DNA of 64,000 nt from an uncultured Candidatus Saccharibacteria bacterium (lineage in GTDB: Bacteria; Patescibacteriota; Minisyncoccia; Phycocordibacterales; G965230995), in the NCBI GenBank assembly GCA_965230995.1, contig OZ246398.1, positions 400,213 to 464,212 of the forward strand, written 5' to 3'. Positions within the stretch are counted from its first letter, which is position 1. Each line of letters starts with the position of its first letter. Below are positions 7,117 to 39,308 of the stretch, piece after piece. The notes beneath the pieces were generated by a model. The model was not told where the DNA came from. It did not search any database and worked only from the letters and a program-made list of their open reading frames with translations. The position numbers and the translations under genes were made by a program.

Positions 7117-7310
7117 GTTTGTGGAAGTTTCTTATACTCGGCCAAGACCTCATTAATTTGGTCGAGTTGTTTTTGCATTGCAGTGATCTGTTGTTCCAGT
7201 TCGGCTTTTTGTTTTTCTAAAGCCGGAATGTTCACTGTCGAGACATCCTCACGAATGTCTGTCTTTTTTACATTCTCTTGGTCTATTTTTTCCAATGTGA
7301 ATTTTGTCAT
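7113..7310 (-). CDS. Hypothetical coiled-coil phage protein
   Basis: 65 aa with heptad-like, charged, helical sequence. Its stop and start overlap the neighbouring genes. Confidence 0.35.
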   Translation of the reverse strand: MTKFTLEKIDQENVKKTDIREDVSTVNIPALEKQKAELEQQITAMQKQLDQINEVLAEYKKLPQT

Positions 7311-7314
7311 ATGT

Positions 7315-11437: not shown

Positions 11438-12991
11438 TTATCCGGAAGCCGGTATGTTAGTACCTCTCACTGAGTTCGTGCCTTGCATGCTTATTTGTGC
11501 GGTCACCGCATCTTTGCAAACATTGCCAATCGCTAAGTTGTAGTCATCGCTCGCACTTTGCTCTCTGATGTGATAAGCGGATTTGTTTGTTTGCGTGGCA
11601 TGTAAGTTGTTTGATGAGATCACATTGTAGGTTGAATACACTGAGCCATTGTTTGAGAGATAGATGCTGTTCGAAGTGTTGTTAGTAGTTCGCGAAGCAT
11701 TATCTATGGCATTTCCAGTTATGGTGTTGTAGGACGATCCATAAAGATATATCCCATGTCCACCGGCCCCGAAGATATGGTTTCCGCTTATAACATTGCT
11801 TACGGTCGTTCCCGAACCGTAATAAAGAGCAATGCCTTGGCTGGTTGGGTATGTGATTGTATTTCCAGTGATCACATTGTATTTGGTGGCGTTGGAACTA
11901 TTACCGACCACAATACTCCAGCTGTCGCCATAGAAGTGATTGCCAGTTACCGTTACTCTTTGAGCACCAACAAGATAAACTCCGTAGTTTGTGCTGGTGA
12001 AGACCATATTGCCTGTGAACACTTCTCGCCAGCCACTGTTCACATAAAAACCGTAGCCATTATTGCGAATGACATTGCCGGTGATTGTGTTGTAGTTGCA
12101 AGCGTTGTCGTATATTCCGTAGGAATTTGAAGCAAGCACATTGCCAACGATGCTGATGTATTGAGAGCTGGTGAATAATCCGATCGCTGTTCCGGTGTTC
12201 GAATAAATGTAGCAATTTTTTATCACGCTATCCTCAATGGCAATAACTTTCATGCAATCTTGTTTTGCACCAGTCAGCCACATGTTTTCTATCGTTAGCT
12301 TGCTGTGCTTGTACGATGCGGTTCCCCAGAGTACGAGCGGACTGTTGGCACCTGATGTTTGATTGGCTTGATTGCCGTCAATCATGAAGTCTCGAACAGT
12401 GATGTTTGTGTAGCTTACACTTCCGCCGTTTCCAATTCTCACCACATCGCCAAGATTGGCGGAATTGGCCACCCGCAAAATTGTTGATACTCCTTCACCC
12501 TCGAGAATCACATTACTTTTTAAGATTTCAACGACACCAGTCAGGTTATAAGTTCCTTTCTTGATTCTGACTATTCCGCCACCCGATGGTAGATTGCTTA
12601 TGGCTTCATTGATCTCTGTCTGATCGGCTGTGCCGTCGCAGTTGTAGTCACCAGAACCGTCGGTTGCGACAATAACTTCGGTTCTTGTTTGAAAGTCGTC
12701 AAAAAGTTTGGCTGTCACCAAAAGTTCAAGGCGTGTGCCTTGAGGCCATTGTTGGGCAGTGGTGTTTTCTTTGGCTCGTTCGATTGTGAATTGATCGGTT
12801 ACGATCGTTGTTACTTTCACAATCTCTCCCACGCTAGGATCACTTGAGTAAAGCGTGGCGTGGAATGGTGCCGATGGAAACTTCGTCCCGTCACCGGTCT
12901 GCACATTGAGGATAGTCGCACCCGAAAGCAGTGGATTGTCCGTGATTGTGCTTTTGGCGTTATTCTTTTTTGTTAAGAAAGTTTTAGCCAT
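11438..12991 (-). CDS. Tailspike / depolymerase with a right-handed parallel beta-helix (pectate-lyase-like)
   Basis: Many PbH1-type repeats such as ...ITGNVIRNNGYGFYV..., ...VTGNHFYGDSWSIVVGN..., ...ITGNTITY... and ...ISGNHIFGAGGHGIYL... Confidence 0.7.
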   Translation of the reverse strand: MAKTFLTKKNNAKSTITDNPLLSGATILNVQTGDGTKFPSAPFHATLYSSDPSVGEIVKVTTIVTDQFTIERAKENTTAQQWPQGTRLELLVTAKLFDDFQTRTEVIVATDGSGDYNCDGTADQTEINEAISNLPSGGGIVRIKKGTYNLTGVVEILKSNVILEGEGVSTILRVANSANLGDVVRIGNGGSVSYTNITVRDFMIDGNQANQTSGANSPLVLWGTASYKHSKLTIENMWLTGAKQDCMKVIAIEDSVIKNCYIYSNTGTAIGLFTSSQYISIVGNVLASNSYGIYDNACNYNTITGNVIRNNGYGFYVNSGWREVFTGNMVFTSTNYGVYLVGAQRVTVTGNHFYGDSWSIVVGNSSNATKYNVITGNTITYPTSQGIALYYGSGTTVSNVISGNHIFGAGGHGIYLYGSSYNTITGNAIDNASRTTNNTSNSIYLSNNGSVYSTYNVISSNNLHATQTNKSAYHIREQSASDDYNLAIGNVCKDAVTAQISMQGTNSVRGTNIPASG

Positions 12992-22588: not shown

Positions 22589-23150
22589 AATTTTTTAATT
22601 CTCAAATCTCTGGCACGCCCACATCCCTTGTATATTTTTTATTACCCGAACCCTTGAGCTCGGGCAGTGTGAGGTCGATTAACAAGATTGGATGTCGACC
22701 GTTATTGGGCGTGGCAGAGAGCTGGCAACAATCAAACAAAAAAGAGCTCGCGATTGATTACCACAAAAAGTGATAATTAATCGCAAGCTCTTAAACTTGG
22801 AATTCCTTTCAGGATGCCTCGTGAGGCATAACTCTATTTGATTGTTAATTGCATTATACTACTTTTCAAAAAACAGCACAATAGTTTTTTCTGTGCATAA
22901 TTTATTTACTCTCGAACGGGGATCATTTTACATAAAGCCCGCCACCAAGAGTAGAAACCTTTCGGTCTCAACGCACGAGTTTCCCCATACGACCATCCAA
23001 GGATCCCTGATGACGGGTTCTATATCTTGGATGGATTTTTTGCCATGCCTACCGCAGTGCGATAAGTTTAGGCGATTAAATTGTCACTTATTATTTTAAT
23101 ATAAAATGGGTAAAAACACCAGACCGAATTTATTTCCAGAAATGAAGAAG

Positions 23151-23211
23151 GGGTTATCCGCATTGCTGTGGATAACCCCTTTGGAATTTTGTAGCGACCG
23201 CCTTCGGCGGA
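23151..23211 (-). promoter_or_regulatory. Two GC-rich hairpins just 3' of the VR: ggggttatcc-N10-ggataacccc and ccgcc-ttc-ggcgg. Candidate DGR homing-enhancing hairpin/cruciform and IMH region.
   Basis: Perfect 10-bp and 5-bp stems within 100 bp downstream of the VR stop codon. Confidence 0.45.
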
Positions 23212-23271: not shown

Positions 23272-24156
23272 CTACTGCGAGACAAGACCGGAAGCCGAAC
23301 CGTAGCCGTCGTTGGCACCGTCGACCCAGTGCGCGACGAACCTGACCTTGCCGTCGTAGAACCCGAAGCACGGAGACCCCGAGAAGCCGCCACCGGCACC
23401 CGGTGCGAACTCGTCCCCGGCACAGTCGATCCAGAGATCGTCATAGTGCTGGAGTCGTTCCGGATGCGTCAGGATCATGATCCCGATGGCGAAAGCCCCG
23501 AGACCGAACTCGCTGGCGCTCATGACTTCGCGTGCCCGGCGAACCGAACGGCCCCTGTGACGGAGACCGAACTGAGCCGAAACGACGAGAATGTCGTGAT
23601 CCTTCTGCTCGTCGCCGAGCTTCTGGAACGCCTTGGCCGACTTCTGCGACTGACGGAGATACTGCGGACCGAGCTGGCCTTCACGGTAATTGTAGAACGC
23701 ACCGTTTCGGGTCTGCTTGATCAGGTCGAGCACCTTCTGCACGGCTTCGCCGTATGTCGGGGCGATCTTCTCCCACCTCGGAATGGCGAACCATCCTTCG
23801 GCGTTCGGGGGAAGATCCTGCTCGGCCAGCTTCTCATCGGCGTAGCCAATCCCGGGGAACAACTCGTGCAACCGGTTGGTCTGCTCGGTGATTCCTTTGG
23901 GCTTGTAGCCGGAGAGGTAGCCGTAGTTGGATTCCGTTTCCTCGTCTGCGAACTGATTGCTCACAGAGAGTTCACGGACGGCCGTCACGATCCTTGCTTG
24001 GAATTCGTCGCCGTTTTCGATGAGCTTCTGAAGCCCGTCCTTGTCGAGACCCGTTTCTTTGAGCGCACGCTCGGCGGCGTCCTCGACGAACCTGAAGTAC
24101 TGCTTTTTCTGTCCTTCGGTGATGCTGGTGTTGGTGATCGATGTTTTCATCGTCAT
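23272..24156 (-). CDS. DGR target (variable) protein. The VR occupies the C-terminal ~44 codons. GC-rich gene.
   Basis: The 3' terminal 131 bp (23275-23405) is the reverse complement of TR 24632-24762, with only A-to-N differences. Confidence 0.8.
   Translation of the reverse strand: MTMKTSITNTSITEGQKKQYFRFVEDAAERALKETGLDKDGLQKLIENGDEFQARIVTAVRELSVSNQFADEETESNYGYLSGYKPKGITEQTNRLHELFPGIGYADEKLAEQDLPPNAEGWFAIPRWEKIAPTYGEAVQKVLDLIKQTRNGAFYNYREGQLGPQYLRQSQKSAKAFQKLGDEQKDHDILVVSAQFGLRHRGRSVRRAREVMSASEFGLGAFAIGIMILTHPERLQHYDDLWIDCAGDEFAPGAGGGFSGSPCFGFYDGKVRFVAHWVDGANDGYGSASGLVSQ
23275..23405 (-). repeat. DGR variable repeat (VR)
   Basis: Aligns to the TR across ~131 bp. About 19 mismatches, all at TR adenines. 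Confidence 0.85.
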
Positions 24157-24631
24157 CCTCCTTCTTTTTTGAATTCCCAGAGTCGCTCTGGTCAGCGTCT
24201 TGCCTCTTTGTGAGGCGAGCGTGCTGGATACAAAAACCGCTTATATCCAATACGCCAACCTCACAAAATCGCTATATTTAGCCTTTTTGAAAGAACATTT
24301 AACTTCATGTCAGTATAGCAAATATCAACGGTTTTGTCAAGCGTTTTAATGCTACCTGATTTTAGGGTATAATAGCACTGAGTATAGGCTAATGCACGGC
24401 CGTTTAAGGATTGCCGGCGCCGAACTCTCTCATCAAGAGATAAACAACCGGAGTCTTGGGGATCACGGTTTCCAAGAGTGTGTTGCATTGAGGAGATACT
24501 GCTTGCTTTTGTTCAGAACGGGTTCCTTTGCTGGATACCGTCGAATCAAATTCAGGATTGAGAGCATATAGTTCCGTTGCCAACGGGAAGTAAAGCTCGA
24601 GGTCTGGTGACAAGGACGAACAAAAGCAAAA

Positions 24632-24762
24632 TTCCGGATGCCGATGGCGACTTCTCGAAGTCTCCGTACTTCAAGTTCAACGACGGCAAGGTCAAGTTCG
24701 ACACGAACTGGGTCGACAATGCCAACGACAACTACGGTTCGGCTTCCGGTCTTGTCTCGAAG
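24632..24762 (+). repeat. DGR template repeat (TR)
   Basis: Adenine-rich (AAC/AAG codons) counterpart of the VR. Same strand as the RT gene, 410 bp upstream of the RT start. Confidence 0.85.
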
Positions 24763-24808
24763 TCACTCCTCTTTTTAAGAAAGGGTACCCTCACGGGTAC
24801 CCTTTCTC

Positions 24809-25159
24809 TTACTCGGCTTTCACCGAGCGAATCCATCCTCCCAGCATTCTTCCGATTTCATCGATTACGCTTTCAAGTATCATATATTTTTTAGCGTCTA
24901 TCGTTTTTGTGTCCTTCATTAGTCGAATGAAGACTCTTAGCATGTTGAGCTTGAGGCTGGCCTTTTCAAGTGTTGGCAATTTTTCTTTTTTCTGCTCTCC
25001 ACTTGCTTTCATTATACTTTCCAAAACATCTAAAATCGCACACTCGGACTTTTCAAAAACCGTGAAGCGATCTTGTTTGGGAACGAGTTTGCGATACTCA
25101 TTGAATGTTTTGTATAAGTCATAGCTTTTCTTAAAAATAGGAATATCAAAGTCATTCAT
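24809..25159 (-). CDS. avd: Avd, the accessory variability determinant (four-helix-bundle family)
   Basis: 116 aa and basic. The C-terminus ...IDEIGRMLGGWIRSVK resembles the Avd/S23-IVS family ending. Lies between the TR and the RT. Confidence 0.7.
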   Translation of the reverse strand: MNDFDIPIFKKSYDLYKTFNEYRKLVPKQDRFTVFEKSECAILDVLESIMKASGEQKKEKLPTLEKASLKLNMLRVFIRLMKDTKTIDAKKYMILESVIDEIGRMLGGWIRSVKAE

Positions 25160-25171
25160 AGTTTTAATTTT

Positions 25172-26221
25172 ATGAGAGTTTATACTAATTTATTCGAGAA
25201 AATAATTTCAATCCCTAATATTTTTACTTCGTGGGAAGAATTCAAAAGCGACAAACGCAAGAAGGCGGATGTCCAAGAATTTGAATTTAACCTTGAGCCG
25301 AATTTGTTTGCTCTTTACCGTGATTTAAAGGGCAAAAGATATGTTCATTCTCCATACTCTGGATTTTATATTTATGATCCAAAGGTCAGGCATGTCCATA
25401 AGGCTTCAGTGCGTGATCGTATTTTGCATCATGCTATTTTTCGCATTCTTAATCCGCTTTACGACAAGACTTTTATAGCGAATTCGTTCTCATGCCGAAT
25501 AAACAAAGGAACGCATAAAGGAGTATTGGCTGTTGAGCGAATGATTCGAAGCGAAAGTCGAAATTTTACCAGACCGTGTTTTGCCTTAAAGTGTGATGTC
25601 AGAAAATTTTTTGACAGCATTGACCATCGCACCTTACTAAGCATTCTCGGTAAAAAAATAACAGATCAAGACACTATGTGGCTTTTGAACAGGGTTGTGG
25701 AAAGTTACTCGGCCAGTCAGACTAATTTATTCGATAGGCAGGGTTTACCCATAGGCAATTTAACCTCGCAACTTTTCGCGAATGTTTACATGAATGAATT
25801 TGATCAATTCGTGAAGCATAAACTTAAGGTTGTCAATTATGCTCGATACACCGACGACTTCGTTATTGTCTCGACCGACAGAGCGTATCTTGAAAATATC
25901 CTAGATCCAATCAAGGAGTTTTTGGATAAAAATTTACAATTGTCGCTCCATCCCAATAAGGTATCGATCCGGGCGTGTCATCAGGGCGTTGACTTCTTGG
26001 GATATGTCGCTTTCCCGTACCACCGTCTTGTAAGAGCAAGAACAAAACGGAGAATATTCCGCAAGATGAAAGAACGCATCGCCATGTTCAGAAGCGGAAC
26101 AATCAGCGAGGATGCTCTTTCGCAATCTTTGCGATCATATTTGGGTGTTCTTTCCCATGCCAACGCCCACCAACTTTCAGAAGGCCTTAAGAATCAGTAT
26201 TGGTTTTGGTTGCACGATTAA
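25172..26221 (+). CDS. DGR reverse transcriptase
   Basis: RT domain with catalytic YTDD and the DGR-specific motif GLPIGNLTSQLFANVY ([I/L]GxxxSQ). Confidence 0.9.
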   Translation: MRVYTNLFEKIISIPNIFTSWEEFKSDKRKKADVQEFEFNLEPNLFALYRDLKGKRYVHSPYSGFYIYDPKVRHVHKASVRDRILHHAIFRILNPLYDKTFIANSFSCRINKGTHKGVLAVERMIRSESRNFTRPCFALKCDVRKFFDSIDHRTLLSILGKKITDQDTMWLLNRVVESYSASQTNLFDRQGLPIGNLTSQLFANVYMNEFDQFVKHKLKVVNYARYTDDFVIVSTDRAYLENILDPIKEFLDKNLQLSLHPNKVSIRACHQGVDFLGYVAFPYHRLVRARTKRRIFRKMKERIAMFRSGTISEDALSQSLRSYLGVLSHANAHQLSEGLKNQYWFWLHD

Positions 26222-26416
26222 AAAACCCCGCAAACCATCCTTTGCGTATACAAACGCAAAAAGTCCTTTGCGAGGCTCTCTTGGATGGTTTTGCGACCAT
26301 GCCCTGATTCGGGTTTAGGCCTTATTCGGTTGTTTGCCTATTTTAGCAGGAAAAATCAATAATTGGCAGAATGTCTGTAAATATTGGCAATACTTGCCCA
26401 CAGTAGCTGGACTTGC

Positions 26417-26545
26417 ATTTACCGCTGTAATCCGTTATAATCCACTATATGGTGTATAGCGTTAAATCAATACGGCTCGACATTGTTTTTACCGCTGTAA
26501 TCCGTTATAATTAACTGTATAAACTATAGCGTTAAAATTATTAAT
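26417..26545 (+). repeat. Two tandem ~70-bp direct repeats (tttaccgctgtaatccgttataat...tatagcgttaaa) upstream of fic. Possible duplicated promoter/operator.
   Basis: Visible duplication at 26417-26470 and 26487-26545. Each copy contains a tataat. Confidence 0.5.
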
Positions 26546-26552
26546 CAAATCT

Positions 26553-27623
26553 ATGTCTATGGACAACATTTTTAACAAATTTGATCATCGAATAAAAAAT
26601 CTTGACCCACACATTGTGGCTATTTTGGCTGAGATTGACGGAATTCGAGGCGAATTTAAATCTGGCTTGCGAATGACTCCCCAGGCAATTACTAATCTCA
26701 AAAAATCTACACTGATCACTTCAGCCGGTGCTTCTACTCGTATTGAGGGTGCAAAGCTTACCGACGAAGAGGTGGAGAAAGTCATGAGAGGTCTTGCTAT
26801 CTCAAAGTTTGCTGATCGTGATTCTCAAGAGGTTCAGGGATATTTGGAAACACTCCAAAATGTTTTTGATAGTTATCAGGATTTACCACTTAGGGAAAGT
26901 TTGATCACCTCACTCCACAATCAGCTTCTTAAGTATTCGCACAAAGACGACACTCATCGTGGCAGTTACAAAAAGAAAGAGAATACTGTCGGAGTACTTG
27001 GACCGGATGGAAACATTGCAAAGATAATGTTTGAAACCACGCCGGCTTTTCTAACCGGCAAAGAGATGCAGGAACTTGTCGAATGGACAAATGATGCTTT
27101 TGAGAAGAATCGTTTCCACAATCTTTTAATTATCGCAAACTTTGTTGTTGAATTTTTGAAGATCCACCCATTTGAAGATGGTAATGGTCGTCTTTCTCGT
27201 GTTCTCACGAATCTTTTACTTTTGCGATCAGGTTATCAGTTCGTTCAGTATGTCTCACACGAGCAATTAGTTGAACATAGAAAAGACGAATATTATATTG
27301 CACTCCGTAAATCTCAAGAAACATTCAAAACCGACCACGATACAATTTCGCCATGGCTTAATTTCTTTTTATCAGTTATTAGAGAACAAGCCGTGAAGGC
27401 ACTATCGTATCTGGAAGAAGAAAAGATTGAGGACACTCTCTCTCCCAAGCAATATGAGGTATGGAAATATCTCACAGGTGTTGAACAGGCAGGACCGGGT
27501 GAGATTGTGAAGGAAACGAACATAGCACTCGGAACGGTACGCCAAGCACTCGACCGGTTGGTTGAACTTGGTAAGGTCAAGCGTGTCGGGCGTGGCCGAG
27601 GTACGAGGTATGTAAAAATATAA
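26553..27623 (+). CDS. Fic/Doc family protein (AMPylation-type) with a C-terminal winged-helix domain
   Basis: Canonical Fic motif HPFEDGNGRLSRVL. Confidence 0.85.
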   Translation: MSMDNIFNKFDHRIKNLDPHIVAILAEIDGIRGEFKSGLRMTPQAITNLKKSTLITSAGASTRIEGAKLTDEEVEKVMRGLAISKFADRDSQEVQGYLETLQNVFDSYQDLPLRESLITSLHNQLLKYSHKDDTHRGSYKKKENTVGVLGPDGNIAKIMFETTPAFLTGKEMQELVEWTNDAFEKNRFHNLLIIANFVVEFLKIHPFEDGNGRLSRVLTNLLLLRSGYQFVQYVSHEQLVEHRKDEYYIALRKSQETFKTDHDTISPWLNFFLSVIREQAVKALSYLEEEKIEDTLSPKQYEVWKYLTGVEQAGPGEIVKETNIALGTVRQALDRLVELGKVKRVGRGRGTRYVKI

Positions 27624-28230: not shown

Positions 28231-29217
28231 ATGCCAAAAAAGAAATTCGATATTAAAAAAGCAAAATTTATTGACTTATTCGCTGGAATAGGAGGCTTTA
28301 GATATGCACTTGAATCCCATGGGTTAGAATGTGTCTATACTTCCGAATGGGACAAGTATGCACAGATGACTTATGAGGCCAATTTTGGAGAAACACCAGA
28401 TGGAGATATAACAAAAGTCGATGAGAAAAAAATTCCAAAACACAATATTATCTGTGCGGGATTTCCATGTCAGGCTTTTAGCATATCCGGTAAACAGCGA
28501 GGTTTTGAAGACACAAGAGGAACGCTGTTTTTTGATGTAGCGAGGATTGCTAAATATCATAAACCGGAAATTTTGTTTTTAGAGAATGTTAAAAATTTTG
28601 CAAAACACAACGATGGACAAACATTAGAGGTAATAAAGAAAACTCTTGATGAACTCAACTATAATGTTTTTTACAAAGTTTTGAATGCGAGTCAATATGG
28701 TGCTCCGACATCAAGGGAGAGAGTCTATATTATTTGTTTTAGAAAGGATTTGGGTGTAGATGATTTTTCTTTTCCCTTACCGGTCAATAAACCAGTAAAG
28801 CTCAAGGATTATCTTGTGGATGACAAGGAGTCGGCTTCATATGTAATAAAAAGAGACGATATAAAAATTAGAGAAAAAAATATAACAGCCGATATCTTCG
28901 GAAATTATTCACAAGGACCGATACGAATTGGCACAATAAATAATGGTGGCCAGGGTGAACGAATTTATAGTGACCTTGGACACGCCATAACCTTTTCAGC
29001 TTATGGAGGCGGTGCTGGTAGTAGAACGGGAGCTTATCTTATAAATGGTAAGGTTAGAAAACTCACGCCCAAGGAATGTTCAAGAGTGATGGGGTTTCCG
29101 GAAAACTTTAAAATACCAGTGAATAAAACCCAGGCTTACAAGCAATTTGGCAATAGCGTGGTTGTGCCAGTCTTGAAGCAAATTATGAAACAGATAATTT
29201 TAACAATAGAAAAATAA
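28231..29217 (+). CDS. DNA (cytosine-5)-methyltransferase
   Basis: Motif I LFAGIGGF, motif IV GFPCQAFS, ENV motif, and QRGFEDTRGTLFFD. Confidence 0.9.
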   Translation: MPKKKFDIKKAKFIDLFAGIGGFRYALESHGLECVYTSEWDKYAQMTYEANFGETPDGDITKVDEKKIPKHNIICAGFPCQAFSISGKQRGFEDTRGTLFFDVARIAKYHKPEILFLENVKNFAKHNDGQTLEVIKKTLDELNYNVFYKVLNASQYGAPTSRERVYIICFRKDLGVDDFSFPLPVNKPVKLKDYLVDDKESASYVIKRDDIKIREKNITADIFGNYSQGPIRIGTINNGGQGERIYSDLGHAITFSAYGGGAGSRTGAYLINGKVRKLTPKECSRVMGFPENFKIPVNKTQAYKQFGNSVVVPVLKQIMKQIILTIEK

Positions 29218-29218
29218 T

Positions 29219-29986
29219 ATGCCTATAAATAAAGATTTAAAGAAAGCGATCCTTTTAGGATCAAATACCGCTAGAGGCGGTTTTAGAAACGAAGATGATG
29301 TTGTCGAAAAATTTAACAACTGGAAAACCGACGAAGATGCTCAAAAGTGGTTAGAGACTATGGGTTATCCAATTAAGGAAATAGAGAGGGTTGAAGCAAT
29401 AAAATTGCACGGTTATAAAACCGATGTCCAAGTTCAAATTACAATTTATTTAAAAAAAGCAATTTCGGCTGAAAATATTTCAATAAAACTCGTCAGCAAT
29501 CCTCAAGGATTTAATCAGGTTGATAAAAGATGGGTAGAAAATTATATTGAAATGTGGGAAATTCCTTCTGATTTGGCGAAAGTGTTAAAGCAATTTACCG
29601 GCGAGATTCTCCCAGAAAATACAGACGGATTACGAGATCCTCGAAGACTATTTTTGGATGAAATGAGCAAAGCAGTACAAAATAAAATAATTGATTTTTT
29701 TACAAAAAATAAAATTCTCGTAGTTTCGGATATTCTAAAAGGAAGAGGAAAATTTTCAGCCGGTTGGATGCTTGTAGTGTTAAAATCAAAAGACGAAAGC
29801 AGATGGGTATTAAAATCAATAAACCACGCCATGAATGTGTTCGCGGAAGGCGAAGTTAGAATTACTCCACAAGGTAGCTTAAAAATTGGTAAAATTGGCA
29901 TGCAAAGAAAAGGTGGAGATGGTGGTCGAGATTCCGCAAAGATGTTGCAATTTAAGATAAATCCAGTTGAGCTCTTTAAAGATTAG
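29219..29986 (+). CDS. Putative type II restriction endonuclease partnered with the C5-MTase
   Basis: Its start (29219) lies 2 bp after the MTase stop (29217), placing it in the same operon. It has no MTase motifs. A possible PD-(D/E)xK-like segment is D...ISIK. Confidence 0.4.
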   Translation: MPINKDLKKAILLGSNTARGGFRNEDDVVEKFNNWKTDEDAQKWLETMGYPIKEIERVEAIKLHGYKTDVQVQITIYLKKAISAENISIKLVSNPQGFNQVDKRWVENYIEMWEIPSDLAKVLKQFTGEILPENTDGLRDPRRLFLDEMSKAVQNKIIDFFTKNKILVVSDILKGRGKFSAGWMLVVLKSKDESRWVLKSINHAMNVFAEGEVRITPQGSLKIGKIGMQRKGGDGGRDSAKMLQFKINPVELFKD

Positions 29987-30028
29987 TGACAAGGCATTTT
30001 TCAAAAATATTTAACTTCAAAATAAGTT

Positions 30029-30820
30029 ATGGATTTAGAATCTTTCAAATTACCAGCCCTTGAGGCACTGGCAAAAATAATAGGAGATCATTTCACCGGC
30101 ACAGAGGTTTCCGAGTTATTTCGCAAAGCTGGTTTTCCAGAGATTCGCCATGATGGAGGGACAAAATGGAGGTTTGTATATTCTGCGATGGAACAAATGC
30201 AAAAACAGCAGTACGGAAGCCACAACATAGCAAAGTTAATCCAACAAGTATGTGATCCTCAAGAATACTTTTCATCCCCAGACGCTCATGAGGATGTTTG
30301 TAAAAAGGTAAATAACATTTTGAGCTTCTATGGATTGGCTGTAGGTAATGATGGAAAATTAAGAAAAACTGGAGATAAGGCCACCTCACTCGCCAAAACA
30401 ATCCCCGAAAATGCAAAAATTTTTGATGATCGTCATTTTCACACAAAGATTAATCAACATGCTCGTAAATTGTTTACTGAGGGCAATTATTTTCATGCTG
30501 TTTTCGAATGTTGCAAAGTCTATGACAAAGAGGTTCAAGATAAATCCAAGATGTCTGGTTACGGAGCTCGATTAATGGAAACAGCACTTGCAACAACGGG
30601 CACAATTAAACTTAACAGTCAGATCAATCGCACTGAGGTCAATGAACAAGAAGGAGTAATGCATCTCTCGGTCGGATTGATGCGTGCCATAAGAAATCCC
30701 CAGGCTCACGAACCAGCCCTTGATTGGCCGATTATTAGAGATGAAGCCTTAGACCTTTTGTCTTTTCTTAATTTCTTGTTTAGAAAATTAGACAAAGCAG
30801 TCTACTTCAATAATAATTAA
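30029..30820 (+). CDS. HEPN-domain protein (TIGR02391/Hypoth_Ymh-like), a putative abortive-infection RNase
   Basis: C-terminal Rx4H HEPN motif in ...LMRAIRNPQAHEP... Sits next to the R-M system. Confidence 0.45.
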   Translation: MDLESFKLPALEALAKIIGDHFTGTEVSELFRKAGFPEIRHDGGTKWRFVYSAMEQMQKQQYGSHNIAKLIQQVCDPQEYFSSPDAHEDVCKKVNNILSFYGLAVGNDGKLRKTGDKATSLAKTIPENAKIFDDRHFHTKINQHARKLFTEGNYFHAVFECCKVYDKEVQDKSKMSGYGARLMETALATTGTIKLNSQINRTEVNEQEGVMHLSVGLMRAIRNPQAHEPALDWPIIRDEALDLLSFLNFLFRKLDKAVYFNNN

Positions 30821-30828
30821 CACTTTTT

Positions 30829-33804
30829 ATGAGTAATCTATACCAAAGAGGATCGGAGTGGCGAAAGTGGGATTTGCATGTTCACACCCCAAAATCAATA
30901 ATTCAAGAATATGGCGGAGATACAAAAGCAGTATGGGACGCATTTATTTTAAAAATAGCATCTTTACCACCCGAAATTAAAGTGATTGCAGTCACGGACT
31001 ATTTATTTTGTGACGGGTATGAATATTTACTTACAAGACGAGGTGAGTTTACAAATATTGAACTATTAATTCCAAATATAGAATTTAGACTTAATACTTT
31101 TAGTGGGACGGCCAACAACACTCGTAGACATAATTTTCATGTACTATTTGATCCAACCGTTAGTGTGCAAGATATTAGGGATCAGCTTTTAAATTGTCTA
31201 TCGAGTGGGTATAAAATAGAAGATAATACTAAATGGGAACAAACACCAACGAGACGATCGTTGGAAGATCTCGGCAAACAAATTAAGGCGGCGGCTCCGA
31301 CAGGAAACACTATACATAGCAAAACTGATCTTGAAGTAGGATTTGATAATATTACCTACGACAGAGATACAATTTATGAATTATTAAGCAAAAATTGTTT
31401 TACTGGAAAATTTGTAACTGCCATAGGTTATTCTGAATGGGATCATTCTCGATGGGATCAGTCAGCTGTTGAAAAGAGAGACTTGATAAATTCTGCGAAC
31501 TTTTGTCTTACATCTCTTGATGACCCATCTAAAATAAGTGAGAATCGCCAAGACCTCGAAACAAACAAATTAAACAGTATTGTTTTACATTCATCTGATG
31601 CACACAAACTTGATCGTGTCGGTCAGTCAATGCTCTGGGTTAAAGCTGATCCGACATTCGCTGGTCTCAAACAGGTACTAAATGAACCAGAAGCCCGTGT
31701 TTTTATTGGCGAGACACCTCCCAACCTTAAACCAGATCACAAAGTAATAAAAAAAATATCTATTCCACTATCTAATGGATGGTTTGCCAATGACTTTGAA
31801 TTAGAATTAAATCGGGACTTAATAACAGTTATTGGTGGCCGTGGTTCAGGTAAATCTGCCCTAGCGGAGGCGATTGCCTATGGCGCTGGAAGTAAAGATA
31901 ACAGTGATGATGCATTTTTAAAGAAAGCTTCGAAACATAAAAATTCTATAGCTGGAACTAAAATTAAAATTGACTGGGCAGATGGATCGTCTACAGAATT
32001 TGAAGTCGGGAAACTTACAGAGGATCAAGGGCTTGTTCAGTATTTACCGCAAGGAGCTGTGGAAGATCTATGCTCACACCGTAATAGTGAAAAGTTACAG
32101 AAACAAATCGAGAATGTTATTTTTCAAAAGCTTGATGACACCGAACGAATGGGTGCTTCAGATTTTGATGAACTCAGGACACGAATACTTAGTGGCTTTA
32201 AATATGAAAAAGAACAGGTTGTCGAAAAAATCCATGACATCAATCATAAGATAGGTGAGCTAGTTTCTGTACTCCGGAATCTACCGGAAAAGGAAAAACA
32301 GCTCGGCGAGAAAAAAGCCGAACTTGAAAGATTAAACAAAAGTTTGCCAGAATTGCCAGCTGAAGATAAAAAAGGACAAGAAGAACTTGCCAAACTCGCA
32401 GAAGTTAAGAAAAAGTATGAGGCCAAAATAGTTGAGCTTCAAGGTAAACTAAATAAAATTAGTGATGTTGAGACTAAAGTTAAAATTTTTAAATCTAAAA
32501 TTAAAGAATTTAAAGATGAAATTGATGTTTTGCTTACTGGGCTAGGTCTATCGGAGTCAGATGTATTTACCGTTACATTTAATGAAGACGCTATAAAAAA
32601 ATCTCTTGATTCAGAGAAGAATGAAATTGCCGAACATCTAAAAACTATTAAACAAGGAAAGAAACGGGAGGTCGCCCAGCTTCTTTCTATTGAAGAATCT
32701 GAATTACCTTTTGATAACTTGCAGGACTTGAACAAAGGTATAGAAGATAAACAGAAAGAGACGAGAGCTTTTGAAACTACAAAATTAAAATATCAGCAAC
32801 AAAAGAAAACTATTTTAACGGTTGAGAGTACAATTAAGGCAATTGATGGAGAAATTACTCGAATAAAGTCAGAATCAACCCCGGAAAAAGAACGACTGGA
32901 GAAAGAACGCTTTGGAGCTTATAGCAGTTATTTTGAGCTACTTAAAAGCGAAAAATCTAAAATGGAAGAGTTGTATAAACCACTACAAGATTCACTTTTA
33001 GCTGGAACAGATACTGATAAAAAATTGGTTTTTGAAGCACAAATTAATTATCGACTTGAACTTCATAATAAGGCAGGTCTCGATATTATTGACAGGTCAC
33101 GCAAAGGAAACTTCCGAGAAATTGATAGCTTAAAAAAGGTTCTCAGTGAGCACTCAGATGAATTTATAAGGCACGAGTTTGATCTGACTATTCTTGAAAC
33201 AAAATTAAAAGCGACTCTGGATAATTTTTTAACATTTGAGGAAAATGAAATTCTTATTGAAGATCAGCTAAGAGAAAATCACAATCTTGAAGACTTTTAT
33301 AATTGGTTATTTGATCCTACTTATTTTGAGATTATTTCATCGCTTAAGTTTGACGATACCGATCTTTATTTGCTCTCACCTGGACAGAAAGGAATTATCC
33401 TTCTGATTTTATATCTTAAGATTGATGAGGATGATTACAGGCCATTAATAATCGACCAGCCTGAGGAGAATCTTGATAATCTTTCCGTATATAGGGATTT
33501 AATTGAGTATTTCAGAGACAGAAAGCAGTTCAGGCAAATTATAATGGTTACGCATAATCCCAACCTTGTTGTAAATACTGATGCAGAACAAATTGTTGTC
33601 GCAAATTATAATGGCAAGCGAACGCCAAAACTCGAATATTGTTCGGGCTCTCTTGAGGATCAGGCAAGAAAAATACCCGATGTAGAAATTGAAAAATTCG
33701 AAGATGGGATAATTGAACAAGTTTGCAATATACTTGAGGGTGGTGAACCGGCATTTGCAAAGAGAAAAAAGAAATATCAAATTTCAATAAGAAGTAAAAT
33801 TTAA
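30829..33804 (+). CDS. PHP-domain fused to an ABC/SMC-like ATPase with a long coiled-coil insert ('Ppl'-like antiphage protein)
   Basis: N-terminal PHP motif WDLHVHTPKS, Walker A VIGGRGSGKSALAE, a coiled coil of roughly 250 aa, ABC signature LSPGQKGIILL, and Walker B/D-loop LIIDQPEENLD. Confidence 0.6.
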   Translation: MSNLYQRGSEWRKWDLHVHTPKSIIQEYGGDTKAVWDAFILKIASLPPEIKVIAVTDYLFCDGYEYLLTRRGEFTNIELLIPNIEFRLNTFSGTANNTRRHNFHVLFDPTVSVQDIRDQLLNCLSSGYKIEDNTKWEQTPTRRSLEDLGKQIKAAAPTGNTIHSKTDLEVGFDNITYDRDTIYELLSKNCFTGKFVTAIGYSEWDHSRWDQSAVEKRDLINSANFCLTSLDDPSKISENRQDLETNKLNSIVLHSSDAHKLDRVGQSMLWVKADPTFAGLKQVLNEPEARVFIGETPPNLKPDHKVIKKISIPLSNGWFANDFELELNRDLITVIGGRGSGKSALAEAIAYGAGSKDNSDDAFLKKASKHKNSIAGTKIKIDWADGSSTEFEVGKLTEDQGLVQYLPQGAVEDLCSHRNSEKLQKQIENVIFQKLDDTERMGASDFDELRTRILSGFKYEKEQVVEKIHDINHKIGELVSVLRNLPEKEKQLGEKKAELERLNKSLPELPAEDKKGQEELAKLAEVKKKYEAKIVELQGKLNKISDVETKVKIFKSKIKEFKDEIDVLLTGLGLSESDVFTVTFNEDAIKKSLDSEKNEIAEHLKTIKQGKKREVAQLLSIEESELPFDNLQDLNKGIEDKQKETRAFETTKLKYQQQKKTILTVESTIKAIDGEITRIKSESTPEKERLEKERFGAYSSYFELLKSEKSKMEELYKPLQDSLLAGTDTDKKLVFEAQINYRLELHNKAGLDIIDRSRKGNFREIDSLKKVLSEHSDEFIRHEFDLTILETKLKATLDNFLTFEENEILIEDQLRENHNLEDFYNWLFDPTYFEIISSLKFDDTDLYLLSPGQKGIILLILYLKIDEDDYRPLIIDQPEENLDNLSVYRDLIEYFRDRKQFRQIIMVTHNPNLVVNTDAEQIVVANYNGKRTPKLEYCSGSLEDQARKIPDVEIEKFEDGIIEQVCNILEGGEPAFAKRKKKYQISIRSKI

Positions 33805-33805
33805 T

Positions 33806-34555
33806 ATGTCAGAATACTACACAGCACAAAGGGTAAAAGGTTTATATGATTCAAAGGTTACCGAACCTTTTAAATTATCACGATCAAAGATTGATCTGTT
33901 CTTAAATTGTCCAAGATGTTTTTATTACGATCGCAAACTTGGTGTCGGCCGTCCACCGGGTTTTCCTTTTGCCCTCAATTCGGCAGTTGACCATCTCTTA
34001 AAACTTGAGTTTGATATTCATCGTGCAAATGGCACGAAACATCCTCTTATAGAAAAGTATGGAGTTGATGCTCGTCCGGTTGCCCACGAGGATTTGGATA
34101 AATGGCGACATAACTTTACCGGCATTCAACACTTGCACGAACTTACAAACTTTTTGATATTTGGTGCGATTGATGATCTTTGGATAAATTCTAAGGGTGA
34201 ATACATTGTTGTTGATTATAAGTCCACTTCAAAAGATGAAGATATCACGGAGTTGAATAAAGATTGGCAAATCGGCTATAAGAGACAAATGGAGGTTTAT
34301 CAATGGTTACTTCGCCAAAATGGATACAAGGTTTCTAATACTGGATATTTTGTTTACTGCAACGGACAGACTGATCGGAAGGCATTTGATGGAAAGCTTG
34401 AGTTTGATATCACATTGATTCCTTATGAGGGCGATGATTCGTGGGTAGAAAAAACTATCATTCAGGCACACAATTGTTTAAATAGTGAAAAAATTCCCGA
34501 AGCCAGTTTAGAATGTGATTACTGTAATTATGTTCGGGCAATAAATAGCAAATAA
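33806..34555 (+). CDS. Cas4/RecB-like PD-(D/E)xK nuclease with a 4-Cys cluster
   Basis: N-terminal CPRC, catalytic GAIDD...EYIVVDYKS (D...D/E-x-K), and C-terminal CDYC. Starts 2 bp after the ATPase stop. Confidence 0.65.
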   Translation: MSEYYTAQRVKGLYDSKVTEPFKLSRSKIDLFLNCPRCFYYDRKLGVGRPPGFPFALNSAVDHLLKLEFDIHRANGTKHPLIEKYGVDARPVAHEDLDKWRHNFTGIQHLHELTNFLIFGAIDDLWINSKGEYIVVDYKSTSKDEDITELNKDWQIGYKRQMEVYQWLLRQNGYKVSNTGYFVYCNGQTDRKAFDGKLEFDITLIPYEGDDSWVEKTIIQAHNCLNSEKIPEASLECDYCNYVRAINSK

Positions 34556-36691: not shown

Positions 36692-37414
36692 ATGTCATTT
36701 GGCTCATATCTAAAAAAACAGAGAGAAACCAACAAATGGACGGCCAAGGATATCGCTGATCGCCTTGGTTTTTCGGCCAGTTATGTCAGTCAGTTGGAAA
36801 ACGATGCCAGACTCCCTTCTCAGAAGCAGTTGGGGCTTTTGGCTAAGGCTTACGAGGTCGACGAGGACGAATTAAAAAAACAGTGGACCGAATCAAAGAT
36901 CCATAAGGTCAGCATTTCTACAAACTATAAATTCAACATCAAAGACGCTGGCGAGAAGCGTGTTGAAGAAATGACTCACAAACTGGAAGCAGGTTTGGAG
37001 GAATTAAAAAAGACGATCACAGCCGATGAAGTGGCACATTACAAAATGCCACTGTTCAATACCATTCCAGTGGAAGATCTCGATCTGCATCTCAAACATG
37101 CGGAGGAATTTATTTTTATTCCTAAGAACGGGATTGTTCGTGATCACCGTATATTCGGCATTCGTGTTTCCGATGTTCAATTTCCGGAGGCAGGTATAAT
37201 CGAAGGCGACCTGATTATGCTTGATGCGGACATTGAGGCAAGTGACGGAGACATTGTAGTGTTGTCTACGCCAGACGGTCTGGTCATGACTTACTTCAAA
37301 AAGCGTGGTGACTTTTTGGAGATTGCGACCAGCAATAAAGGTTTTCAAAAAAGTTATCCGGACAAGAGTGTCCGATTAATAGGTCGGCTAATTTATCACA
37401 TAAAAAAATACTAA
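36692..37414 (+). CDS. cI: CI-like repressor: N-terminal XRE HTH plus a C-terminal S24 (LexA-like) peptidase domain
   Basis: HTH WTAKDIADRLGFSASYVSQLE, and a C-terminal ...GIRVSDVQF...GIIEGDLIMLD...DGDIVVL... beta-barrel region. Confidence 0.6.
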   Translation: MSFGSYLKKQRETNKWTAKDIADRLGFSASYVSQLENDARLPSQKQLGLLAKAYEVDEDELKKQWTESKIHKVSISTNYKFNIKDAGEKRVEEMTHKLEAGLEELKKTITADEVAHYKMPLFNTIPVEDLDLHLKHAEEFIFIPKNGIVRDHRIFGIRVSDVQFPEAGIIEGDLIMLDADIEASDGDIVVLSTPDGLVMTYFKKRGDFLEIATSNKGFQKSYPDKSVRLIGRLIYHIKKY

Positions 37415-37459
37415 CCCCAGGGCTCGCCAAGAGCCCTGCTGTTTTTTATAGCAAACATT

Positions 37460-39166: not shown

Positions 39167-39233
39167 ATGAAACAAGAAGAGTTATCGACTATGTTGAATT
39201 TAAAAGGCGGGGTTTACAATTGAATATATAAAT

Positions 39234-39308
39234 GGCCTTATCGTCTAACGGTCAGGACACGGCCTTTTCAAGGCTGTAATCGGGGTTCGATTCCCCGTAA
39301 GGTCACCA
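39234..39308 (+). tRNA. tRNA-Glu (anticodon UUC), with CCA encoded
   Basis: Cloverleaf: acceptor ggcctta/taaggtc, anticodon stem cggcc/ggctg with loop uuUUCaa, and T-arm cggggTTCGAttccccg. Confidence 0.8.

Follow-up and report, generated by a model that had tools for sequence, protein, structure and literature searches.

The DNA analysed here is a stretch of 64,000 nucleotides (the window) in which prophage matches were obtained to a major head protein, a head–tail adaptor (connector), a large terminase, a tail fibre and an endolysin, and in which a CI-like repressor and a large serine recombinase adjoin tRNA-Ser and tRNA-Glu. The sequence supports placing the DGR on a prophage in the Patescibacteria genome of an ultra-small (CPR) bacterium. 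The features of the DGR and its immediate surroundings are collected in Table 1.

Table 1. Observed and predicted features in and around the DGR cassette (window coordinates)
Feature	Position	Strand	Details
LOOT RNA (Rfam RF03000), full-length	22954..23074	-	∼200 nt downstream of target stop, same strand
Palindromic hairpin, 16 bp	23147..23182		∼90 nt past target stop; read from sequence
DGR variable (target) protein gene	23272..24156	-	294 aa; ORF list, AlphaFold models, homologs
Variable repeat (VR)	23274..23403	-	codons 252–294 plus first base of stop codon; inverted match to TR
Inverted repeat, 27-nt arms	24207..24267		presumed target 5′ UTR; repeat search
Predicted sigma-70-like promoter, TTGACA-17-TG-TATACT	24312..24340	-	11/12 consensus matches only; ∼155 nt upstream of target start
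Template repeat (TR)	24634..24763	+	RT strand; inverted relative to VR
Strong GC hairpin, AAGAAAGGGTACCC-TCAC-GGGTACCCTTTCT	24777..24808		between TR 3′ end and Avd stop; read from sequence
Avd accessory protein gene	24809..25159	-	antisense, between TR and RT; Pfam bAvd 6e-17
DGR reverse transcriptase (RT), 349 aa	25172..26221	+	Pfam RVT_1; phrog_1423 2e-114

The open reading frame that the initial annotation had named as a DGR target is indeed a real target, within a complete DGR cassette. TR and VR align over 130 nt with 18 mismatches, every one of them at a TR adenine, and genes for Avd and a DGR-type RT lie nearby. Since the VR takes up residues 252–294 of 294 (43 codons), it sits at the extreme C-terminus of the protein, as had also been proposed; its 3′ limit is the first base of the stop codon, with hairpins 55–125 nt downstream. 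The 30 TR adenines all fall at codon positions 1 or 2 and none at the third. There are 20 mutable codons, corresponding to ∼10^17.5 protein variants, and five of the TR codons are AAG, which can mutate to TAG. Among the changes in VR relative to TR, A→G dominates. The Avd protein scores 83.5 bits with NCBIfam DivGenRetAVD (equivalog cut-off 80) and matches the PHROG ‘Avd protein of DGR’, and the translation of 25172–26221 contains both IGNLTSQ, the DGR-typical (I/L/V)GxxxSQ motif, and the catalytic YTDD. The same TR(+)/Avd(-)/RT(+) module is also seen in relatives. On a 958-kb contig of Ga0265297 there are matches with 93% identity to the target protein and 96% identity to the RT.

Comparison with two related loci shows where the targets differ. 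The VR of one (L006, 88% amino acid identity) has 26 differences from the window VR, of which 21 are at TR-adenine positions. For the closest relative (L007) the corresponding figures are 28 and 17, and nucleotide identity, ∼0.89–0.98 over most of the scaffold, drops to ∼0.75 in the VR. What is observed here is the anatomy of the cassette, and it is on the basis of established DGR biology that we infer its operation: a short TR RNA would be transcribed from the + strand, the RT/Avd complex would copy it into cDNA while misreading adenines, and the cDNA would replace the inverted VR 1.2 kb away, so that 20 codons within the last 43 residues would be rewritten. The hairpin beyond the target stop could be terminator-like, or could be a cruciform element of the kind often carried by DGR target sites, and that between TR and Avd is possibly a two-way terminator or an element of the DGR RNA.

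The LOOT RNA behind the target scores 76.5 bits, against an Rfam gathering score of 46.4, and is placed identically in relatives. In an alignment of 19 distinct sequences, 93.6% of cells are paired and 32 of the 38 pairs show compensatory changes. The RNA lies at a fixed distance behind the target gene in a third of its occurrences. The LOOT motif is reportedly described in the supplement of Weinberg et al. 2017. A further Rfam match, to ciliate telomerase RNA at 22734–22875, was taken as chance (27.9 bits, gathering score 52).

The target protein and its likely role

The target open reading frame cannot be extended: upstream of it, a stop is reached before any in-frame ATG, GTG or TTG. A Shine–Dalgarno sequence, AAGGAGG, abuts the first ATG but stands 6 nt ahead of the second, at 24150, and because of this spacing the true start is probably M3, giving a product of 292 aa. 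The full target was modelled by AlphaFold with a pLDDT of 81 and a pTM of 0.75, and residues 85–294 with values of 79 and 0.84. The predicted layout is an N-terminal three-helix region (∼14–63), a linker, and an alpha/beta domain (∼89–250) which runs on into the beta-strands of the VR. In the models, two beta-hairpins of the VR carry conserved hydrophobic residues (F, F, V, F, W) in alternation with mutable positions, a predicted pattern that matches the design of a diversified binding face.

No signal peptide was found, in keeping with the initial annotation: the N-terminus is polar (mean KD hydropathy of the first 25 residues −0.72) and there is no alternative upstream start. The accompanying claim that there is no transmembrane segment stands with a qualification. 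The only hydrophobic stretch, residues 211–229, has a KD19 of 1.78, which is above the classical threshold. It includes two serines and a glutamate, and AlphaFold models it as a strand and a buried helix (221–230) with pLDDT 82–93, so that it is probably not a transmembrane segment. On sequence and model alike, then, the target appears to lack the signal peptide, lipobox or membrane anchor of a secreted or membrane-anchored DGR adhesin.

For a phage-borne target the absence of a signal peptide is expected, Mtd of phage BPP-1 being a tail protein that is assembled in the cytoplasm. The target might likewise be a virion component, serving the prophage as receptor-binding protein or tail-fibre adaptor, and cytoplasmic assembly like that of Mtd would then explain the missing signal peptide. 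The location of the DGR inside a prophage and the common orientation of the target with the packaging and structural genes are in line with this, and the N-terminal helical region of the model could serve as a docking module. The target also gives weak local fold matches, over ∼42 residues, to phage ‘tail collar fibre’ proteins. However, methylase and ParB-like genes stand between the target and the structural genes, the tail fibre gene (11438–12991) lies in the structural block while the target is outside it, and neither by position nor by homology, there being no PHROG match, does the target belong to a tail module. About half of its homologs have no phage genes within 8 kb, one example lying between ftsX and ftsZ, and the CPR clade-2 DGRs are classed as almost entirely cellular (Roux et al. 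2021, PMC8144416). We therefore regard a virion role as distinctly unlikely.

The protein has no Pfam, NCBIfam or PHROG match and no PDB sequence match. The lack of a canonical FGE-sulfatase or C-type lectin (CLec) sequence signature, remarked on in the initial annotation, extends to the family: the target itself has no match to FGE-sulfatase, DUF1566 or related Pfam families, and none of 88 diverse relatives matches the lectin, FGE or DUF1566 families in Pfam even at E ≤ 1. Structural searches with Foldseek gave little more. The full target model returned nothing with E < 1 from the PDB or BFVD. For the domain model (85–294), alignments of more than 115 columns with TM ≥ 0.35 were obtained only to the LOX-1 CTLD, mannose-binding protein A and the C-terminal domain of Bd2740, with TM scores, normalised by target length, of 0.35–0.46 and E-values of 2–7, which are non-significant. 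TaqVP (42 columns) and the tail collar fibre proteins match the ∼42-residue VR part, also non-significantly (E > 1). A profile of the target family found no match among PDB sequences, and aligning it to Mtd with hhalign gave a probability of 0.25%.

From these weak alignments, the C-terminal ∼200 residues probably form a C-type-lectin-like domain that has diverged very far. This assignment could be wrong, because all the fold matches have E > 1, the PDB profile search was empty and the Mtd alignment scored so low, and the VR domain could be a non-CLec fold. A non-CLec fold is not established either, since C-type lectin domains are the only structures with which the domain-only model can be aligned along its length, and weakly. 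The AlphaFold prediction and fold search suggested in the initial annotation thus gave a mixed answer, with no confident CLec match but with CTLDs as the sole long, if weak, alignments. A confident CLec or FGE fold together with a signal peptide from an upstream start was to have marked a conventional target; neither was found, and there is no in-frame upstream start. As far as such weak indications allow, the target is probably a soluble ligand binder in phage–host or symbiont–host conflict; a tail fibre or a secreted adhesin of the classical kind is less likely.

A CPR-wide family with a GC-rich coding sequence

The target had been described as unusual, but the homolog search gives the opposite picture. 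It returned 3404 matches, the best 120 at 70–91% identity over the full length, and the family comprises 1776 clusters at 50% identity from at least 297 GTDB species. The homologs, in their thousands and 55–91% identical, are found in Patescibacteria/CPR. The best 80 are mostly titled CPR/Patescibacteria MAGs, with a minority labelled Gammaproteobacteria, Flavobacteriales, Loktanella or Humimicrobiaceae, which we read as mis-binned contigs. Judged by its sequence, the target is a typical representative of a CPR family that is very large and uncharacterised, with proteins of ∼290 aa and a highly conserved scaffold, and it belongs to the standard CPR type of DGR target. RT and Avd are adjacent to the target in 39 of the 80 best loci; in other loci the target occurs with a TR alone amid housekeeping genes. 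Beyond the DGR parts there are no conserved neighbours, only varied mobile-element genes, and mobile contexts (ParB-methylase, type III R-M, serine recombinase, prophage) are frequent. A sliding-identity scan for mosaicism or recombination was suggestive for L006 (0.74–0.98) but not decisive, and a signal in another locus (L027) proved artefactual, having come from a wrong start or a frameshift.

The initial annotation was right about the strong GC-richness of the gene in an otherwise AT-rich element. The target is 59.7% GC, compared with 40.4% for the rest of the window, and its GC3 is 0.77, compared with 0.37–0.49 in neighbouring genes; six host genes (rpsA, ftsZ, ftsA, gyrA, an aminoacyl-tRNA synthetase and lepB) have values of 0.27–0.35. 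The TR is 54.6% GC and the VR 66.9%. GC1, GC2 and amino acid composition are GC-shifted too. Across the family, GC4 is 0.675 in targets and 0.419 in flanking genes, with the target higher in 66 of 69 loci, and the step in GC coincides with the start and stop codons. A comparison within the same 38 loci gives a GC3 of 0.41 for RT, 0.43 for Avd and 0.73 for the target. GC-richness is therefore a family-wide trait confined to the coding sequence, although GC3 of the target ranges from 0.33 to 0.90 among loci, and one recent transfer does not account for it. The proposal that target and TR were acquired together from another lineage, as a one-off event, is not supported by this comparison, as 66 of the 69 loci are GC-rich within the bounds of the coding sequence and RT and Avd are not. 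No such GC-richness is seen in other genes that lie ahead of LOOT RNAs.

At four-fold degenerate sites of the target, A is the most depleted base (0.108, or 0.42 times the 0.259 of flanking genes), T is reduced to 0.68-fold, and C and G are raised 1.82- and 1.36-fold. The loss of A would fit collateral mutagenesis by the DGR, in which read-through cDNA or reverse-transcribed target mRNA converts the whole gene and strips adenines from the coding strand, raising GC. Against this, T is depleted as well, and C gains more than G even though A→G dominates the VR changes. Targets that are co-oriented with TR/RT do not differ from inverted ones (p = 0.52), nor do those with a TR within 8 kb (GC3 0.73) from those without (0.71), and no enrichment is seen in the 5′ UTR or in the stretch from the stop codon to TR. 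Collateral mutagenesis is accordingly very unlikely.

Constraint from an overlapping antisense gene or a structured mRNA deserves next to no weight. A 294-aa antisense open reading frame (23329–24213, + strand) does cover the whole gene, but it is open because TTA, CTA and TCA codons are avoided in the target: the frame is at least 90% open in just 32 of 72 homologs and has 3–13 stops in the less GC-rich members, and we rejected it as a gene. A structured target mRNA was rejected on its folding energy (z-score −0.59 relative to dinucleotide shuffles). High-expression codon bias was rejected likewise, the host rpsA, ftsZ and gyrA genes having GC3 of 0.28–0.33 and 4–8% G at four-fold sites.

A more serious alternative is that the target, with its TR, is foreign, having been transferred recently and repeatedly from an unsampled reservoir of GC-rich hosts or phages into AT-rich CPR genomes and then decaying towards AT. 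On terminal branches, synonymous changes in the target run GC→AT in 444 cases and AT→GC in 165, although parsimony polarisation of such changes is biased in skewed sequences. The shift in GC1, GC2 and amino acid composition, the wide spread of GC3 among loci, which would suit copies that have decayed to different degrees, and the frequent mobile contexts all point the same way. Yet none of the 80 best loci, most of them titled CPR MAGs, has GC-rich flanks (maximum 0.56), the RT and Avd of the same cassette are host-like in composition, and the GC step falls exactly at the ends of the coding sequence. Target GC4 also tracks host GC4 (rho 0.48). The equilibrium GC3 implied by substitution counts in the same loci is 0.56–0.66 for the target, much above the 0.37–0.40 for RT. 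Repeated import thus seems unlikely. The present GC3 at scored sites (0.72–0.81) is nonetheless above the implied equilibrium, and this, with the GC→AT excess, indicates that part of the GC-richness is a decaying legacy.

These equilibrium values fit better with the other explanation offered in the initial annotation, a constraint on codons or composition. The substitution patterns suggest a bias particular to this gene, favouring codons that end in G or C and above all codons that do not end in A; it would uphold the GC-richness at least in part, and could be caused by selection or by recombination-linked biased conversion. Our best overall explanation, to which we give a probability of roughly 0.6, is a CPR-type prophage DGR variable protein, a probable CLec-like soluble binder, whose gene is subject to its own GC bias. 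The initial annotation is, as a whole, partly supported.

A more far-reaching reading, which we hold tentatively and at somewhat less than even odds, is that a CPR-wide family keeps a private, CDS-bounded GC-rich composition through an active gene-specific process, that this and the LOOT RNA form an undescribed layer of DGR target biology, and that the VR domain is possibly non-CLec. The private composition amounts to 68% GC and 11% A at four-fold sites, compared with 42% GC in neighbouring genes. Random pairs of family members have a median dS of ∼1.3, and if this composition is truly kept across such near-saturated synonymous divergence, an active gene-specific process would be needed. Candidates are GC-biased conversion arising from unusually frequent whole-gene recombination among mobile copies, and selection for A/T-poor codons tied to life as a retroelement target.

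Few known organisms are as rich in DGRs as CPR bacteria. The ligands and the site of action of the CPR variable proteins, which have neither export signal nor known domain, are acknowledged to be an open question (Roux et al. 2021, PMC8144416). The window offers a compact and complete example, with predicted promoter, target, TR, Avd and RT on a prophage, from a family big enough for comparative work. A single-gene compositional island that is conserved across a phylum bears on how base composition is kept up in bacteria, whether by selection, biased conversion or transfer, and could act as a simple detector for this CPR target family. The island and LOOT, so far an orphan motif, are two handles on the family; neither the confinement of GC-richness to the CDS nor the neighbouring LOOT RNA turned up in the literature searched. 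Both leave DGR biology standing, and the element is a conventional DGR.

Comparison with known DGR systems

DGRs with unannotated target protein clusters were reportedly found in CPR/Patescibacteria by Paul et al. 2017. The nearest counterpart to the window is the CPR ‘clade 2’ of Roux et al. 2021 (PMC8144416), which is alike in its RT/Avd/TR/VR cassette, adenine-specific mismatches, host lineage and C-terminal VR. The clade-2 targets likewise have no transmembrane segments or recognisable domains, and novel CLec variants have been predicted among them (PMC8144416). In contrast to the window copy, which is on a prophage, clade 2 is described as almost entirely cellular (PMC8144416).

The BPP-1 system resembles that of the window in being phage-borne, in the absence of a signal peptide, in a VR formed by the last ∼40 residues, in the adjacent Avd and RT, and in TR adenines that avoid third codon positions. 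It differs in arrangement: Mtd is in the tail module and mtd-avd-TR-brt are all co-oriented, whereas in the window the target is inverted relative to TR/RT, with Avd antisense between TR and RT. The window TR, unlike that of BPP-1, has AAG codons able to give stops, and Mtd and the window target have no sequence or profile similarity. The CLec-fold variable proteins TvpA, TaqVP and AvpA share with the target a C-terminal VR in which conserved residues alternate with variable ones along beta-strands, and the structural alignments to CTLDs and TaqVP are those weak, non-significant ones given above. The VR motif, however, differs, that of the window family being F-x3-P-x-F-x-F-x2-G-x-V-x-F...GSASG, and the FGE-sulfatase/DUF1566 types left no Pfam signal in the 88 relatives.

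A last comparison is with the DGR-diversified intracellular ‘antigen sensors’ of multicellular bacteria. These are reportedly large multidomain NTPase/effector proteins. The window target, at 294 aa, differs in having no recognisable effector domain. In Dore et al. 2024 (PMC10907252), the antigen sensors are, like the target, described as being without export signals, and are proposed to serve in conflict systems.

A complete DGR with adenine-specific divergence

The two copies of a 130-nt inverted repeat, compared in register, differ at 18 positions, and all 18 are adenines in the plus strand copy. That every mismatch falls on a plus strand adenine marks this copy as the template repeat (TR); the 3' end of the target ORF is then the variable repeat (VR). 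With an accessory protein (Avd) and a reverse transcriptase (RT), this pair, whose divergence is specific to adenines, makes up a complete DGR, in the order target(-), TR(+), Avd(-), RT(+), so that the target is inverted relative to TR and RT, and Avd lies antisense between these two. On NCBIfam DivGenRetAVD, where the cut-off is 80, the Avd protein reaches 83.5 bits. The DGR target with C-terminal VR described in the initial annotation is therefore borne out and, indeed, all of its factual parts were confirmed (ORF, VR/TR pair, lack of export signals and of sequence signatures, GC content and prophage).

Features of the DGR, of its prophage and of related loci (L numbers); positions are those of the window or of the named locus
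Feature	Position	Strand	Remarks
LOOT RNA (Rfam RF03000)	22954-23074	-	full-length; 76.5 bits against gathering score 46.4
Target ORF	23272-24156	-	294 aa; no upstream extension possible
VR	23274-23403	-	paired with TR
TR	24634-24763	+	paired with VR
Mutable AAG codons in TR	24658-24763		codons 260, 265, 270, 272, 294
Avd gene	adjoins TR	-	116 aa; Pfam bAvd, NCBIfam DivGenRetAVD, PHROG 'Avd protein of DGR'
RT gene	adjoins Avd	+	349 aa; DGR-typical IGNLTSQ motif, YTDD
TR-to-RT module	24634-26221
Major head protein, head-tail adaptor (connector), large terminase, tail fibre, endolysin	2.4-20.4 kb	-
Two direct repeats	26413-26536		54 nt each, 83% identical, 70 nt apart
Fic gene	26553-27623		just downstream of the repeats
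Defence-type cargo	28231-34555		C5 methylase and R.HinP1I endonuclease, Hypoth_Ymh protein, 991-aa SMC/AAA protein, PD-(D/E)XK nuclease
Prophage right end	36692-39308		CI-like repressor (HTH + S24 peptidase), large serine recombinase
HinP1I-type R-M pair, Fic, RadC, CI-like repressor, large serine recombinase	near tRNA-Ser and tRNA-Glu		host genes beyond
L002 target	~6001-6867
L002 TR	~7294-7403
LOOT, L006	9050-9177
LOOT, L008	3614-3742, 4291-4416
LOOT, L016	7576-7709
LOOT, L033	9043-9179		also in L086-L149
LOOT, L037	2414-2548, 6747-6881		two copies
LOOT, L073	6136-6521		two copies

Translation of the target probably starts at M3, because the Shine-Dalgarno sequence AAGGAGG abuts the first ATG directly and stands 6 nt ahead of the ATG at 24150. 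A sigma-70-like promoter-like site lies 155 nt upstream of the gene, and hairpins are present 3' of both VR and TR. The TR (54.6% GC) preserves the VR reading frame, and none of its 30 adenines occupies a third codon position; its 20 mutable codons would allow ∼10^17.5 protein variants. The usual AAY codon design avoids stops through adenine mutagenesis, unlike AAG (Lys), of which the TR has five codons, mutable to TAG. By established DGR biology, TR RNA would be copied by RT and Avd with misincorporation at adenines, and the cDNA would then replace the VR. The inverted orientation of the target should be no obstacle, since homing acts in trans on the VR.

The DGR sits inside the prophage, with defence-type cargo downstream of it. 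At the right end, the 3' end of the recombinase gene overlaps tRNA-Ser(CGA), with tRNA-Glu next, and this junction is the likely integration site.

The target family and the linked LOOT RNA

Among 5.8 billion proteins searched, 3404 homologs of the target came up, the best 120 of which are 70–91% identical over their full length; an exhaustive HMMER search yielded 1776 clusters at 50% identity. Two peptide patterns alone find homologs in 297 GTDB species genomes. Most of the best 80 GTDB matches carry Patescibacteria/CPR MAG titles, and the few with other labels look like mis-binned contigs. The scaffold (residues 1–250) is highly conserved and the last ∼40 residues vary, the VR keeping a fixed frame, F-x3-P-x-F-x-F-x2-G-x-V-x-F-x3-W...GSASG. 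One homolog (P0026, 373 aa) has an internally duplicated central domain. A near-complete, CPR-sized contig of 957,791 bp (L117, Ga0265297_10000004) encodes a target, RT and Avd respectively 93, 96 and 99% identical to those of the window.

RT and Avd accompany the target in 39 of 80 loci, always as a TR(+)/Avd(-)/RT(+) module, with the target either co-oriented with it or inverted, as in the window (both types among L006, L014, L016 and others). Other loci have the target with a TR alone, or with neither, within 8 kb. In one such case (L002/L003/L010), target and TR are flanked by ftsX and housekeeping genes of the ftsZ region; the pair has 15 TR/VR mismatches, all at A, and no RT or Avd within 6–8 kb, so that it either depends on an RT located elsewhere and working in trans or is orphaned. 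In close relatives, the VR differences fit recent DGR activity: they fall at TR-adenine positions in 21 of 26 cases in L006 and 17 of 28 in L007, and the latter is ∼0.89–0.98 identical to the window in nucleotides over most of the scaffold and ∼75% in the VR.

A LOOT RNA follows the target stop in the window by ∼200 nt. Six copies served to build a covariance model, which detected 20 copies in 17 of 82 sources (window and target loci). Covariation is strong, with 93.6% of cells paired and compensatory changes in 32 of 38 pairs. Inverted-type cassettes always have LOOT on the strand of the target, 160–200 nt downstream of it, and some co-oriented ones have it ∼280 nt upstream on the opposite strand; from this placement it is therefore opposite to the RT in every RT-bearing locus, save for the second, inverted copy in L008. 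Two copies are present in some loci, either in tandem or as identical direct repeats separated by 4.3 kb. Of 64 LOOT loci found by a pattern scan run independently, 21 had a target homolog 166–204 nt ahead, always on the same strand, and the others were preceded by other genes (Fic-like and others) at 22–49 nt. Judged by these arrangements, LOOT looks like a candidate element at the 3' side of accessory-gene cassettes in mobile CPR DNA, its commonest partner being the DGR target.

GC-richness bounded by the coding sequence

The target is, as the initial annotation had it, strongly GC-rich in an AT-rich element (59.7%, with 40.4% in the remainder of the window), with a GC3 of 0.77 that is unchanged outside the VR; neighbouring genes, including RT and Avd, have 0.37–0.49. 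Across 80 species-level loci the homologs average 57.8% GC (GC3 0.72) and the flanks 41%, and in the same 38 loci GC3 is 0.41 for RT, 0.43 for Avd and 0.73 for the target. At the 5' boundary GC climbs within 50 nt of the start codon, and at the 3' boundary it falls as soon as the stop is passed. Four-fold sites in 69 loci read A.108, C.416, G.258, T.217 in the target and A.259, C.229, G.191, T.322 in flanking genes, with four-fold GC higher in the target in 66. In the 64 metagenomic loci found independently via LOOT, target homologs have GC3 0.71–0.87, and the other genes preceding LOOT a host-like 0.33–0.56.

Family members paired at random have nearly saturated synonymous divergence (median dS ∼1.3; four-fold mismatch 0.58 against 0.70 expected at saturation). 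By parsimony, terminal branches of the target carry 444 GC→AT and 165 AT→GC synonymous changes. The implied per-site equilibrium GC3 is 0.56–0.66 for the target and 0.37–0.40 for RT in the same loci, both estimates being drawn towards 0.5 by parsimony bias. Because of this difference, the target is under a gene-specific GC-favouring bias; its present GC3 is above equilibrium and some decay is under way. We give a probability of roughly one half to selection on codon or nucleotide composition and GC-biased conversion by frequent recombination, taken together. Conversion would be limited to the coding sequence because the flanks differ and recombination is possible only within the conserved CDS. 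Repeated import of the target from an unsampled GC-rich reservoir is a doubtful alternative: none of the flanks observed was GC-rich (at most 0.56), the composition of RT and Avd is like that of the host, and target GC4 follows host GC4 (rho 0.48).

Several other causes were tried and rejected: an overlapping antisense gene, a structured target mRNA (z = -0.59), and high-expression codon usage, given that host rpsA, ftsZ, ftsA and gyrA have GC3 of 0.28–0.33. Strand-specific collateral adenine mutagenesis fails likewise, as neither target orientation nor TR presence has an effect; it is also contradicted by the depletion of T along with A and by a rise in C exceeding that in G. We found no published description of the anomaly in the literature searched. 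Both the GC-richness, which spans the family and is bounded by the CDS, and the linkage to LOOT are genuine and merit a short follow-up.

Fold, role and comparison with known targets

The polar N-terminus of a non-extendable ORF upholds the claim that the target has no signal peptide. The accompanying claim of no TM segment is probably right: there is one hydrophobic stretch, at residues 211–229 (KD19 = 1.78), which AlphaFold models as a strand and a buried helix (pLDDT 82–93). Also as claimed, there is no canonical FGE/CLec signature, searches of Pfam, NCBIfam, PHROGs and PDB sequences having returned nothing; neither sequence nor profile routes led to a fold. The full-length model (56-sequence alignment; pLDDT 81, pTM 0.75) opens with an N-terminal region of three helices, continues through an ill-defined linker into an alpha/beta domain and ends in beta-hairpins bearing the VR. 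Foldseek found nothing at E < 1 for it in PDB and BFVD, and TaqVP and several phage 'tail collar fibre' proteins aligned over ∼42 residues only. A second model, of residues 85–294 (pLDDT 79, pTM 0.84), likewise had no significant Foldseek match. Its only near-full-length alignments at TM ≥ 0.35 (target-length normalised) are to C-type lectin domains (LOX-1 twice, mannose-binding protein A) and the Bd2740 C-terminal domain, over 115–125 columns with TM 0.35–0.46 and E 2–7. From these models we lean towards a very divergent CLec-like C-terminal domain. The combination of a confident CLec fold and a signal peptide was looked for and not found.

The target may be a soluble binder with a diversified hairpin face. 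It occurs in prophage, mobile-island and plain chromosomal contexts in equal measure, and this, with its position outside the tail module, makes a virion receptor-binding protein improbable. Because there is also no export signal, we would tentatively opt for a role inside the cell, or one with some other non-classical deployment, in phage–host or symbiont–host conflict.

The interpretation put forward in the initial annotation is upheld in part, and the GC results alter it. The description of the target as unusual did not hold up, given its 3404 homologs and the survey of Roux et al. 2021 (PMC8144416). There, CPR 'clade 2' DGR targets typically lack a TM segment or recognisable domain, whether they are truly non-membrane is left open, and their VR domains are predicted to be novel CLec variants; a cytoplasmic-looking target is therefore the norm in this lineage. 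The family is huge and already known, though uncharacterised, and the target in the window is an ordinary member of it; the element is a conventional CPR-type DGR, its target resembling those of 'clade 2' in having no recognisable domain.
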